This document shows, piece by piece, positions 29,937-35,094 of a DNA stretch of 64,000 bases. Origin of the DNA: Escherichia coli. GTDB lineage: Bacteria; Pseudomonadota; Gammaproteobacteria; Enterobacterales; Enterobacteriaceae. The first letter of the stretch is position 1; each line of letters begins with the position of its first letter. The notes beneath the pieces are model-generated. The model was not told the origin of the DNA. It made no database searches and saw only the letters and a program-made list of their open reading frames with translations. A program made the position numbers and the translations under genes. The stretch lies in NCBI RefSeq assembly GCF_022846255.1, contig NZ_AP025682.1; one strand, written 5' to 3'.

Positions 29937-30556
29937 GGCACGGACTGCTGGCGCTGATTTGCTGGCTGTGTTGTGTTGTTGCCCATAGCGAAATGCTGAA
30001 TGTCGAACAATCCGGGCTGTTTCGCGCGTGGTTTGTACGCATTGCACAGGAACAGCTCCGCCAGGGGCCAAGTCCGCGCTGGTATCAGCAGGATTGTGCG
30101 GGCCTGGTGCGATTTTCGGCGAACGAAGCGCTGAAAATTCACGACAGCAAATGGCTAAAAAGTAACGGTATAGCAAGTCAGTATTTGCCGCCTGAAATGA
30201 CGCTAACACCTGAACAGCGTCAACTGGCGCAAAACTGGAATCAGGGGAACGGAAAAACCGGCCCCTATGTGACCGCGATTAATTTGATTCAATATAACAG
30301 CCAGTTCATTGGCCAGGACATAAACCAGGCGCTGCCTGGCGATATGATTTTTTTCGATCAGGGCGATGCCCAGCACTTAATGGTCTGGATGGGGCGTTAC
30401 GTCATCTACCACACCGGAAGCGCCACGAAAACTGACAACGGAATGCGCGCAGTCAGTCTGCAACAACTTATGACATGGAAGGACACCCGATGGATACCCA
30501 ACGATTCCAATCCCAATTTCATTGGCATTTATCGTTTAAATTTTCTGGCGCGATAG
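29933..30556 (+). CDS. yfaT: YfaT (DUF1175) exported protein, 207 aa
   Basis: ATG overlaps yfaA stop (ATGA); signal peptide [19 protein letters not shown]. Confidence 0.8.
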
Positions 30557-33500
30557 CAGCGTGCTTGTGCCTGTCTCTTGTGGGAACAGGGCTTGCTAAT
30601 GCTGATGATTCGCTTCCTTCCAGTAACTATGCGCCGCCCGCCGGGGGAACATTCTTTTTGCTCGCTGACAGCAGTTTTAGCAGCAGTGAAGAGGCGAAAG
30701 TGCGACTGGAAGCACCGGGGCGTGATTATCGGCGTTATCAGATGGAAGAGTACGGCGGTGTGGACGTTCGTCTGTATCGTATTCCTGACCCGATGGCATT
30801 TTTGCGCCAGCAGAAAAATCTGCATCGCATTGTGGTGCAACCGCAATATCTGGGCGACGGGCTGAACAATACGCTGACCTGGCTGTGGGATAACTGGTAC
30901 GGCAAATCTCGCCGCGTGATGCAGCGTACTTTTTCTTCTCAGTCTCGGCAGAATGTGACTCAGGCGTTACCCGAATTACAGCTCGGTAATGCCATTGTTA
31001 AACCTTCCCGTTATGTACAGAACAGCCAGTTTTCACCGCTGAAAAAATATCCACTGGTGGAACAGTTCCGCTATCCACTATGGCAGGCAAAACCGGTCGA
31101 GCCGCAGCAAGGGGTAAAACTGGAAGGCGCATCCAGCAATTTCATCTCGCCGCAGCCGGGCAACATCTATATTCCTCTCGGCAAACAACAGCCGGGACTG
31201 TATCTCGTCGAAGCGATGGTCGGTGGGTATCGGGCAACGACGGTGGTATTTGTCTCCGATACCGTGGCGCTTAGCAAAGTGTCAGGCAACGAACTTCTGG
31301 TGTGGACTGCTGGCAAAAAACAGGGTGAAGCGAAGCCAGGCTCAGAGATCCTGTGGACTGACGGTCTTGGCGTGATGACTCGCGGTGTGACCGATGACAG
31401 CGGTACCTTGCAGTTACAACATATATCGCCAGAACGTTCATACATTCTGGGTAAGGATGCTGAAGGCGGCGTTTTTGTCTCCGAGAACTTTTTCTACGAA
31501 AGCGAAATCTACAACACCCGCTTGTATATCTTTACCGATCGCCCGCTATATCGCGCAGGCGATCGTGTCGATGTTAAAATGATGGGCCGCGAGTTCCACG
31601 ATCCGTTGCATTCATCCCCCATCGTCAGCGCACCGGCGAAGCTTTCGGTGCTGGATGCCAACGGCAGTCTGTTGCAAACCGTCAATGTCACGCTGGATGC
31701 GCGCAATGGCGGGCAGGGGAGTTTCCGCCTGCCAGAAAATGCCGTTGCCGGAGGTTATGAGTTACGCCTGGCTTACCGCAATCAGGTCTATAGCAGTAGT
31801 TTTCGCGTAGCCAACTATATCAAGCCACATTTCGAGATTGGTTTAGCTCTCGACAAAAAAGAGTTCAAAACTGGCGAAGCGGTCAGCGGCAAACTGCAAC
31901 TGCTTTACCCGGATGGTGAGCCGGTAAAAGATGCCCGCGTGCAGTTAAGTTTGCGCGCTCAGCAATTATCAATGGTCGGTAACGATTTGCGTTATGCCGG
32001 ACGTTTTCCCGTGTCGCTGGAAGGCAGCGAAACGGTGTCCGATGATAGCGGTCATGTGGCTTTAAATCTCCCCGCCGCCGATAAACCGAGCCGCTATTTG
32101 TTAACCGCCTCCGCCAGTGACGGCGCGGCGTATCGCGTCACCACCACCAAAGAGATCCTCATTGAACGCGGCCTGGCGCATTACTCTTTAAGTACCACCG
32201 CACAATACAGTAATAGCGGCGAGTCGGTTGTGTTCCGTTATGCCGCGCTGGAATCTTCAAAACAGGTTCCTGTTACGTATGAATGGTTGCGTCTCGAAGA
32301 CCGCACGAGCCATAGCGGAGATCTACCGTCAGGCGGCAAATCCTTTACCGTCAATTTCGATAAGCCTGGCAACTACAATCTGACATTACGCGATAAAGAC
32401 GGCTTAATTCTCGCTGGGTTAAGTCATGCCGTCAGCGGTAAGGGCAGCACGGCGCATACGGGTACGGTAGATATCGTGGCGGATAAAACGCTGTACCAGC
32501 CTGGCGAAACCGCGAAGATGCTGATTACCTTCCCGGAGCCAATTGATGAAGCATTATTGACGCTGGAACGCGATCGCGTTGAACAGCAGTCGCTGCTATC
32601 GCATCCGGCAAACTGGCTGACGTTACAACGTTTAAACGATACCCAGTATGAAGCCCGCATACCAGTGAGCAATTCCTTTGCGCCTAACATCACTTTTTCG
32701 GTGCTGTATACCCGTAACGGTCAGTACAGTTTTCAGAACGCCGGGATCAAAGTTGCCGTTCCCCAGCTGGATATCCGGGTGAAAACGGAAAAAACCCATT
32801 ACCAGCCTGGTGAACTGGTCAATGTCGAATTAACCTCGTCGCTGAAAGGTAAACCTGTTTCTGCGCAGCTAACGGTTGGTGTGGTCGATGAAATGATCTA
32901 CGCGCTGCAACCGGAAATCGCGCCGAATATCGGCAAATTTTTCTATCCGCTGGGGCGTAACAATGTGCGTACCAGCTCCAGTCTGTCGTTTATCAGCTAC
33001 GACCAGGCGCTCTCCAGCGAGCCGGTTGCGCCTGGCGCGACTAACCGCAGCGAGCGGCGAGTAAAAATGCTTGAACGTCCACGGCGTGAAGAGGTGGATA
33101 CCGCGGCATGGATGCCGTCACTCACAACCGATAAACAAGGCAAAGCGTATTTCACGTTCCTGATGCCTGATTCGTTAACCCGCTGGCGCATCACCGCGCG
33201 TGGGATGAACGGCGACGGGCTGGTCGGGCAGGGGCGTGCTTATCTGCGTTCGGAAAAAAATCTCTACATGAAGTGGAGTATGCCAACGGTGTATCGCATG
33301 GGCGACAAACCGGCAGCAGGACTGTTTATCTTCAGTCAGCAGGATAACGAACCGGTGGCGCTGGTGACTAAATTTGCAGGTGCTGAGATGCGCCAGACGC
33401 TGACGCTGCACAAAGGGGCGAATTATATTTCGCTGACGCAGAATATTCAGCAATCTGGCTTGTTAAGTGCAGAACTGCAACAAAATGGGCAAGTACAGGA

Positions 33501-35094
33501 CAGCATTAGCACAAAACTGTCTTTTGTGGATAACAGCTGGCCCGTTGAACAGCAGAAAAACGTCATGCTCGGCGGTGGCGATAACGCGCTGATGTTGCCC
33601 GAGCAGGCGAGCAATATCCAGCTACAAAGTAGCGAAACGCCGCAGGAGATTTTCCGTAACAATCTTGATGCGTTAGTCGATGAACCGTGGGGGGGCGTGA
33701 TCAACACCGGTAGCCGTCTGATCCCGCTCAGTCTCGCCTGGCGTTCACTTGCCGATCATCAAAGTGCCGCCGCTAACGACATTCGTCAGATGATTCAGGA
33801 TAACCGTCTGCGGCTGATGCAACTGGCGGGGCCCGGAGCGCGCTTTACCTGGTGGGGTGAAGATGGCAATGGCGACGCCTTCCTGACGGCATGGGCATGG
33901 TACGCCGACTGGCAGGCCAGCCAGGCGCTCGGCGTAACGCAGCAACCGGATTACTGGCAACATATGCTCGACAGTTATGCCGAGCAGGCAGATAACATGC
34001 CGTTATTGCATCGCGCGCTGGTGCTGGCGTGGGCACAGGAGATGAATCTACCGTGCAAAACGTTGTTGAAAGGGTTGGATGAAGCTATCGCCCGGCGCGG
34101 AACTAAAACTGAAGATTTCTCTGAGGAAGACACCAGCGATATCAATGACAGCCTGATCCTCGATACACCGGAATCTCCACTGGCAGATGCGGTGGCAAAC
34201 GTCTTAACCATGACGTTGCTGAAAAAAGCGCAGTTGAAGTCCACGGTGATGCCACAGGTTCAGCAATATGCGTGGGATAAAGCGGCAAACAGCAATCAGC
34301 CGCTGGCGCACACGGTTGTGCTGCTCAATAGCGGTGGTGACGCTACCCAGGCGGCCGCTATTTTAAGTGGTTTGACCGCTGAGCAATCCACTATTGAGCG
34401 CGCGCTGGCCATGAACTGGCTGGCGAAATATATGGCGACAATGCCTCCAGTTGTTTTGCCTGCGCCTGCGGGCGCGTGGGCTAAACATAAGTTAACTGGA
34501 GGGGGCGAAGACTGGCGTTGGGTTGGTCAGGGTGTGCCGGACATTCTCTCTTTTGGTGACGAATTATCGCCGCAAAATGTGCAGGTCCGCTGGCGTGAAC
34601 CGGCAAAAACGGCTCAACAAAGTAACATTCCGGTGACCGTTGAACGCCAGTTGTATCGGCTTATCCCCGGTGAAGAAGAGATGAGCTTTACTCTGCAGCC
34701 GGTGACCAGCAATGAGATTGACAGCGATGCGCTGTATCTCGATGAAATTACGCTTACCAGCGAGCAGGATGCCGTTCTGCGCTACGGTCAGGTGGAAGTA
34801 CCGCTCCCGCCAGGGGCTGACGTTGAGAGGACTACGTGGGGCATTTCGGTCAATAAACCGAACGCTGGAAAACAGCAGGGGCAGTTGCTGGAAAAAGCGC
34901 GAAATGAAATGGGCAAACTGGCCTATATGGTGCCGGTGAAAGAACTGACGGGAACGGTCACTTTCCGCCATTTGCTGCGCTTCTCGCAAAAAGGGCAATT
35001 CGTTCTGCCTCCTGCTCGTTATGTGCGTTCCTATGCACCTGCACAGCAAAGTGTTGCGGCAGGGAGCGAATGGACCGGGATGCAGGTGAAATAA
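30490..35094 (+). CDS. yfaS: Alpha-2-macroglobulin family protein YfaS, intact, ~1534 aa
   Basis: Single uninterrupted frame; ATG 30490 preceded by SD ggaagga 30477-30483 (alternative ATG 30475); N-terminal export signal; no CxEQ thioester motif found in the translation. Confidence 0.8.

Follow-up and report, generated by a model that had tools for sequence, protein, structure and literature searches.

Two classes of alpha-2-macroglobulin (A2M) are known in bacteria; the second lacks the thioester motif CxEQ 'in many species', and Escherichia coli carries both (Neves 2012, PMC3328433). This second class has been named Type II (Zouhir et al. 2018, PMC5764988). Its member MagD of Pseudomonas aeruginosa (PA4489, encoded in magABCDEF) has neither CXEQ nor any Cys; it is unresponsive to methylamine, undergoes a change of shape with elastase and is found at the inner membrane together with MagA, MagB and MagF (Robert-Genthon et al. 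2013, PMC3735191). With each of these three partners it forms 1:1 complexes, whereas no stable complex of MagD with MagC or with MagE was obtained; after bait cleavage at an engineered TEV site, MagD holds the TEV protease non-covalently (PMC5764988). A paper citing the original work describes MagC as NlpC/P60-like and able to bind peptidoglycan (Zouhir 2021, cited in PMC10318531), and MagD protects P. aeruginosa from the peptidoglycan-targeting type VI secretion system (T6SS) effectors VgrG3 and Tae1, one of them lysozyme-like (2025, PMC12663445). Here we analyse the gene yfaS (30490..35094, + strand) in a window of 64,000 nucleotides of E. coli (assembly GCF_022846255.1, contig NZ_AP025682.1; positions are those of this whole stretch). 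It is an intact open reading frame of 1534 amino acids plus stop, assigned from its Pfam domains and its identity to MagD to the MagD-type (Type II) periplasmic A2Ms. The thioester-less class of YfaS is already described, and by class the feature is known for E. coli too; the novelty that an initial annotation of this DNA implied for a thioester-less YfaS does not hold, since the Type II class has been published (PMC3328433, PMC5764988). What goes beyond the known, namely the exact mapping of the site, the parallel decay of the shielding pocket, a majority, seemingly ancestral, that bears the thioester and the repeated loss of the motif, amounts to modest refinements and not to a discovery.

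We hold it to be probable, from sequence and by analogy, that YfaS, as the orthologue of MagD, is a Sec-exported, thioester-less macroglobulin of an inner-membrane envelope-defence complex and acts as a non-covalent trap. The comparator for MagD was the representative of a cluster of 4290 members named 'alpha-2-macroglobulin MagD [Pseudomonas aeruginosa]', with which YfaS shares 53% identity over 1522 amino acids (E = 0); YfaS is assigned as the E. coli orthologue of P. aeruginosa MagD and as a Type II bacterial A2M. The two proteins have in common the domain order, a signal peptide that is not of the lipoprotein type and the lack of a thioester Cys. They differ in how far the site is dismantled: the MagD representative reads Y-P-Y-G-G-V-E-Q, having lost the Cys alone, with Leu at the position of the pocket Met, whereas YfaS reads E-P-W-G-G-V-I-N with Ser at that position. 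The MagD representative has zero Cys, against one in mature YfaS.

YfaS contains exactly three cysteines, C25, C27 and C1189, the first two within the hydrophobic core of a Sec-type signal peptide, and the mature protein keeps one, C1189 (34054..34056, + strand; translation checked), which lies off the thioester site. The initial annotation had noticed only two Cys-containing segments, one of them in the signal region, and no C-x-E-Q, and we confirm both observations: a scan of the whole protein found none of C.EQ, C..Q and C.E, and the residues aligned with the motif are G1069-V-I-N1072. In the other five frames of yfaS the sole C.EQ is a chance CTEQ just past a stop codon. The possibility that C1189 is a displaced thioester Cys was ruled out, as it lies 117 residues downstream of the site and its column, in an alignment with 22 full-length homologues (54-91% identity), holds Cys in E. 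coli and E. albertii only, the other 20 having Val (19) or Ile (one).

The thioester-equivalent site was located by several alignments that agree with each other. BLASTP against ECAM/YfhM of K-12 gave a weak but colinear match placing Y-P-Y-G-C1187-L-E-Q1190-T-A-S-G-L-F-P of ECAM over E-P-W-G-G1069-V-I-N1072-T-G-S-R-L-I-P of YfaS, and several Pseudomonas sequences among the 22 homologues hold Y-P-Y-G-C-V-E-Q in the same columns. A family profile built from 56 sequences and searched against the Protein Data Bank (PDB) matched ECAM (E = 1.2e-29) and Sa-A2M (E = 6e-26) and aligned the family consensus yPygCveQtaSrL to ECAM YPYGCLEQTASGL. The degenerate site E1065-P-W-G-G1069-V-I-N1072, equivalent to ECAM Y1183-P-Y-G-C1187-L-E-Q1190, is encoded at 33682..33705 (+ strand; translation checked), with the GVIN that replaces CxEQ at 33694-33705. 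The ECAM BLASTP, the family alignments and the profile were inspected for a CxEQ that had been missed at the thioester position, and none is there. All three chemically essential residues are replaced in the aligned protein. Since Cys has become Gly, Glu has become Ile and Gln has become Asn, no thioester would form, and covalent trapping via a beta-cysteinyl-gamma-glutamyl thioester is, on sequence grounds, not possible for YfaS. The suggestion of the initial annotation that the protein probably cannot trap proteases covalently is supported by this replacement of Cys, Glu and Gln alike. The residues around the site are still highly conserved. Invariance of E1065, G1069 and N1072 in the enterobacterial clade was considered as the sign of a new constraint and set aside as uninformative, because 37% of all columns are invariant there.

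In bacterial A2Ms the thioester is protected by a pocket made of two Tyr of the thioester domain (TED; Y1183 and Y1185 in ECAM) and a Met-Tyr pair of the macroglobulin domain at the C-terminus (CTMG) (M1625 and Y1626 in Sa-A2M) (Fyfe et al., PMC4498604). The YfaS equivalents are E1065, W1067, S1514 and Y1515, two of the four being non-conservative replacements (Tyr to Glu1065 and Met to Ser1514). The pair S1514-Y1515 (35029..35034, + strand; translation checked) was identified as the counterpart of Sa-A2M M1625/Y1626 by a profile alignment of frmY to ESMY. The pocket Met is present in 37 of the 37 CxEQ-bearing members of the 56-sequence alignment, while the thioester-less members have A, S, T, I, L, V or M in its place. 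Across the entire protein, no more than four columns (1065, 1069, 1071 and 1072) part the CxEQ group from the enterobacterial clade. As far as these alignments go, the shielding pocket of YfaS has also decayed and is partly dismantled, and the change at the thioester site is surgical, the remainder of the protein being conserved.

An exhaustive phmmer search with YfaS residues 951-1534 against 1.84 billion cluster representatives retrieved only 214 relatives and did not reach the Type I A2Ms. Among representatives of 50%-identity clusters that cover the site, 55 of 71 keep CxEQ, in the form C[VIAT]EQ, at one fixed alignment position. The absence of CxEQ from YfaS is, for this reason, meaningful and not trivial. 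The operon arrangement DUF2138 - MagC/DUF1175 - A2M - DUF2300 - YfaP_C is common to members with CxEQ (P0074, P0139 and P0208) and without it (P0071 and P0144), and proteins in which the A2M is fused to DUF2300 also occur in databases (e.g., P0037 and P0272). The thioester-bearing members of the mag operon (P. citronellolis P0074, P0139 and P0208) resemble YfaS in operon, length and domains, with 33-55% identity; they differ from it in C[VIAT]EQ, in a Tyr or Phe at position -4 and in an invariant pocket Met, and are presumably competent for covalent capture.

Neighbour-joining trees were built without the motif and pocket columns, and parsimony counts of the motif state over 100 bootstraps gave 9-11 state changes. 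The clade with GV[IV]N, which includes E. coli, E. albertii, Superficieibacter, Serratia and Yersinia among its members, was monophyletic in 95 of the 100 bootstraps. CxEQ thus looks like the majority state of the mag/yfa-operon family and, on this sample, the ancestral one; losses of the thioester seem to number about 9-11, and the enterobacterial clade appears to represent one old loss. Because most members, by sequence and operon context, carry CxEQ, the absence of the thioester Cys, by which PMC5764988 delimits Type II and which YfaS shares, does not define the evolutionary family. We tentatively suggest that the published split between Type I with thioester and Type II without it does not match the evolutionary family, within which CxEQ would have been lost independently some 9-11 times. 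After each loss, the shielding Met would have been relaxed while the remaining protein stayed under selection. The pattern itself is well supported; that it is both unpublished and consequential is less so, and we put this reading as a whole forward as a possibility somewhat less probable than its negation. Repeated, site-specific loss of the thioester within a single operon family offers a comparative handle on the value of covalent capture. MagD orthologues of P. citronellolis (CVEQ) and P. nitroreducens (GVEQ) are 83% identical and occupy the same locus by gatCAB/mreB; this pair and the fully degenerate GV[IV]N clade are natural experiments on what the thioester contributes.

The rest of the protein has the order of domains expected for the A2M superfamily, and YfaS is, from its sequence matches and structural model, a member of it, with macroglobulin (MG), bait-region, TED and C-terminal MG domains. 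The MG2 domain (residues 344-440; 31519..31809, + strand; Pfam PF01835, E = 1.6e-25) is the part that aligns to ECAM, CD109, C5 and TEP1. It is followed on the same strand by the scaffold of the bait-region domain (A2M_BRD, residues 661-806; 32470..32907; PF07703, E = 1.9e-18) and by the post-bait A2M (MG) domain (residues 871-953; 33100..33348; PF00207, E = 3.2e-12), which the profile search aligns with ECAM starting at residue 956. Between the two lies a variable stretch of 16 residues (840-855; 33007..33054, + strand; translation checked), with a column conservation of 0.41 against 0.75 on either flank. We take it for the presumed bait because of the domain order and of the MagD fragments of 91 and 74 kDa (PMC5764988). 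Right after it comes a strongly conserved basic segment, ER.VK.LERPRRE.VDTAAW (residues 856-875; 33055-33114), which is kept from E. coli to family members only about 33% identical to YfaS overall. To find such a segment beside a bait is unusual, and a specific processing site may lie there, a suggestion made because MagD undergoes MagB/MagC-dependent cleavage to 100 kDa in vivo.

The C-terminal part of YfaS was more difficult to assign. No TED model scored above the Pfam threshold in YfaS, no NCBIfam model was found for the protein, and phmmer with YfaS alone against PDB sequences did not retrieve ECAM, giving only marginal matches of the MG2 domain to CD109 and C5. The family profile was needed for this reason, and its matches comprise ECAM, Sa-A2M, TEP1, A2ML1, C5 and CD109. 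An AlphaFold2 model of residues 951-1534 (pLDDT 90.3, pTM 0.88) consists of a helical TED and then a beta-sandwich. The predicted all-helical TED homologue (about residues 1045-1320; 33622..34449, + strand) has twelve helices at residues 1051-1314, with G1069-N1072 at the start of the second one. The predicted C-terminal MG domain (CTMG/MG10, about residues 1330-1533; 34477..35091, + strand) is supported by Pfam bMG10, by the beta-sandwich of the model and by alignment to the C-terminus of ECAM. The top Foldseek matches of the model are Salmonella A2M (4u48) and ECAM (4ziu and 5a42), with E of about 1e-17, and it superposes better on native A2M forms (TMq about 0.5) than on protease-activated ones (about 0.27).

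Likeness to ECAM/YfhM and Sa-A2M (Type I; PDB 4rtd, 4ziq, 4ziu, 5a42 and 4u48) is thus one of superfamily and overall architecture. ECAM differs from YfaS in being a lipoprotein, in its CLEQ, in its intact pocket of Y1183, Y1185 and Met-Tyr (PMC4498604) and in its genomic neighbour, pbpC. In K-12, pbpC adjoins yfhM at another locus, and pbpC is not among the neighbours of yfaS (gyrA, yfaA, yfaT, yfaQ, yfaP and atoB). Complement C5 likewise has the macroglobulin fold, has kept a TED while losing the thioester and works via proteolytic activation and conformational change. It appears among both the sequence and the structure matches of YfaS, but with about 10% identity in the structural alignment, in another biology, without operon partners and with a different domain complement.

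The yfaS gene is the third of five genes of an operon, as against six in magABCDEF (window 28100-37600), with which it shares DUF2138/MagB, DUF1175/MagC, DUF2300/MagE and DUF2135/MagF. All are encoded on the + strand. Upstream are yfaA (28248..29936; PF09909, E = 9e-285; 46% identity to a MagB-like protein), a MagB orthologue with an N-terminal transmembrane helix, and yfaT (29933..30556; PF06672; PDB 7bk8, E = 9.1e-103), whose product, 70% identical to a MagC-like protein of Pseudomonas and with a weak Pfam match to NlpC/P60, is the MagC orthologue, predicted to be an NlpC/P60-like peptidoglycan-binding protein. Downstream are yfaQ (35095..36744), encoding tandem DUF2300 repeats (PF10062, E = 6.8e-90) and a SpoIID-like segment (PF08486, E = 7.3e-06), as a MagE orthologue (52% to a MagE-like protein), and yfaP (36749..37525; DUF2135, PF09906), as a MagF orthologue (54% to a MagF-like and 39% to a MagA-like protein). 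No MagA orthologue was found in the 64-kb window, where a Pseudomonas MagA-like protein matches only yfaP (39-42%); the gene for MagA is the difference from the six-gene operon. In YfaT, D54-C55-x-G-L, Q147-H148 and Y159-H160 are invariant in six homologues (46-70% identical to it). They look like the Cys-His-His set of NlpC/P60 proteins, although in the literature DUF1175 counts as a peptidoglycan binder that is inactive. YfaQ begins with a clear signal peptide (…LALVTLPTLA/EE, the slash marking cleavage) and carries its SpoIID-like segment between the DUF2300 repeats; its orthologue MagE has been reported as cytoplasmic.

How a macroglobulin traps without a covalent hook is a recognised question, for MagD partly answered: it traps non-covalently, belongs to a membrane complex and protects against T6SS effectors that target peptidoglycan. 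By this model YfaS, the product of the yfaA-yfaT-yfaS-yfaQ-yfaP (magB-F) operon, would be Sec-exported, non-lipidated and periplasmic. It should be unreactive to methylamine and make no covalent link to proteases. As for MagD, cleavage of the bait would trigger a conformational change by which the attacking enzyme is kept sterically and non-covalently. YfaS would work in an inner-membrane-anchored complex, with YfaA as the membrane anchor, YfaP as a partner and the peptidoglycan-binding YfaT close by, and the complex could shield the envelope from incoming hydrolytic enzymes, e.g., peptidoglycan-targeting T6SS effectors. The alternatives that the initial annotation had offered to covalent trapping, steric caging or a role with YfaA, YfaT, YfaQ and YfaP, agree with the published non-covalent trapping and partner complexes of MagD. 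Several points weigh against this view of YfaS. Every functional step is transferred from an orthologue that is 53% identical, and trapping by MagD was shown for the engineered TEV site only (PMC5764988). YfaS has lost Glu, Gln and the lock Tyr besides the Cys, MagD the Cys only, and the two proteins may behave differently. E. coli has no MagA orthologue in the 64-kb window. A lysozyme-like effector is among those that MagD counters, for which a protease trap is no obvious explanation (PMC12663445). Finally, yfaS is a pseudogene in MG1655, and the gene is therefore dispensable in the laboratory.

The last two points lead to the rival explanations. The main rival, which we judge unlikely, is that YfaS serves chiefly as a scaffold or regulator associated with peptidoglycan, one that holds or gates YfaT and YfaQ or sterically shields the peptidoglycan, the thioester having become irrelevant and been lost. 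It would accommodate the effectors countered by MagD, which target peptidoglycan and include the lysozyme-like one (PMC12663445), as well as a neighbour, YfaT, whose orthologue MagC reportedly binds peptidoglycan (Zouhir 2021, as cited in PMC10318531), a second neighbour, YfaQ, bearing a SpoIID-like segment and a signal peptide, and the retention of the gene in a family with some 9-11 thioester losses. It fits less well with a bait-region architecture and a conserved flank kept under selection, with MagD trapping a protease upon bait cleavage and with the failure to obtain stable MagD-MagC and MagD-MagE complexes (PMC5764988); moreover, most family members keep the thioester and the pocket Met, which is sensible only for covalent capture.

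Two further explanations are poorly supported. That YfaS is a decaying relic without function, the loss of the thioester being a first step of pseudogenisation, is suggested by the annotated pseudogene of K-12 MG1655 (b4500; NC_000913.3, 2329798-2334402), with an in-frame stop at codon 1368, and by many shortened E. coli versions (999, 959 and 1362 amino acids) in the protein database. We consider it very improbable. The gene is intact in the window and in strain LR-58-2. Of 5426 complete E. coli genomes, 5383 are 95-99% identical in DNA at this locus and 5362 contain at least 80% of yfaS, the gene being essentially full length there. Compared with a second E. coli lineage, the gene has a dN/dS of 0.06 overall and of 0.05 in the TED, values that indicate strong purifying selection. 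Besides the highly conserved residues flanking the site, GV[IV]N is common to homologues only 54-91% identical, in a clade recovered in 95 of the 100 bootstraps, so that the protein has long outlived the loss. In wild strains, then, YfaS is an envelope protein that is conserved and under selection; experiments in K-12 are uninformative about it because the MG1655 copy is a pseudogene. Covalent capture by another chemistry, through C1189 or another reactive pair of side chains, we consider next to impossible: one Cys is indeed left in the TED region, but 117 residues separate it from the thioester-equivalent site and it is restricted to E. coli and E. albertii, several homologues have no Cys at all, and MagD, with zero Cys, traps a protease non-covalently (PMC5764988). 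The reading of YfaS as a MagD-like non-covalent trap remains the one that we prefer.

The predicted Sec signal peptide of YfaS comprises residues 1-38 (30490..30603, + strand), with cleavage by signal peptidase I expected at A36-N-A38/DD; A38 is invariant, and the N-terminus hydrophobic, among the homologues. Residues 22-25 (IAAC) fit a loose lipobox pattern but were rejected as such, as they lie in the hydrophobic core of this signal peptide and the Cys is not conserved. No lipoprotein-type N-terminal Cys is conserved among YfaS homologues in the 22-sequence alignment, and YfaS is predicted to lack a lipobox Cys and to be non-lipidated. The RefSeq/PGAP annotation of yfaS in E. coli genomes gives 1504 amino acids, from a GTG equivalent to position 30580 of the window, a start that removes the signal peptide. 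The longer form from ATG 30490 is plausible and favoured here, because a Shine-Dalgarno sequence, GAAGGA, lies 6 nt upstream of the ATG and the signal peptide is kept in homologues. In this form the first 67 nt of yfaS lie within the 3' end of yfaT. At its other end, the GTG start of yfaQ comes immediately after the yfaS stop codon (TAAGTG).

The gene order, gyrA(+) - yfaA - yfaT - yfaS - yfaQ - yfaP - atoB(-), agrees with the annotation of this locus in E. coli. A hairpin rich in GC, with a T-run behind it (AAAAGGGAGCCATCTCCCTTTTTT), lies at 28117-28140, 18 nt past the gyrA stop; it looks like the gyrA terminator and would part gyrA from the promoter region of yfaA. The gene yfaA comes directly after this terminator.

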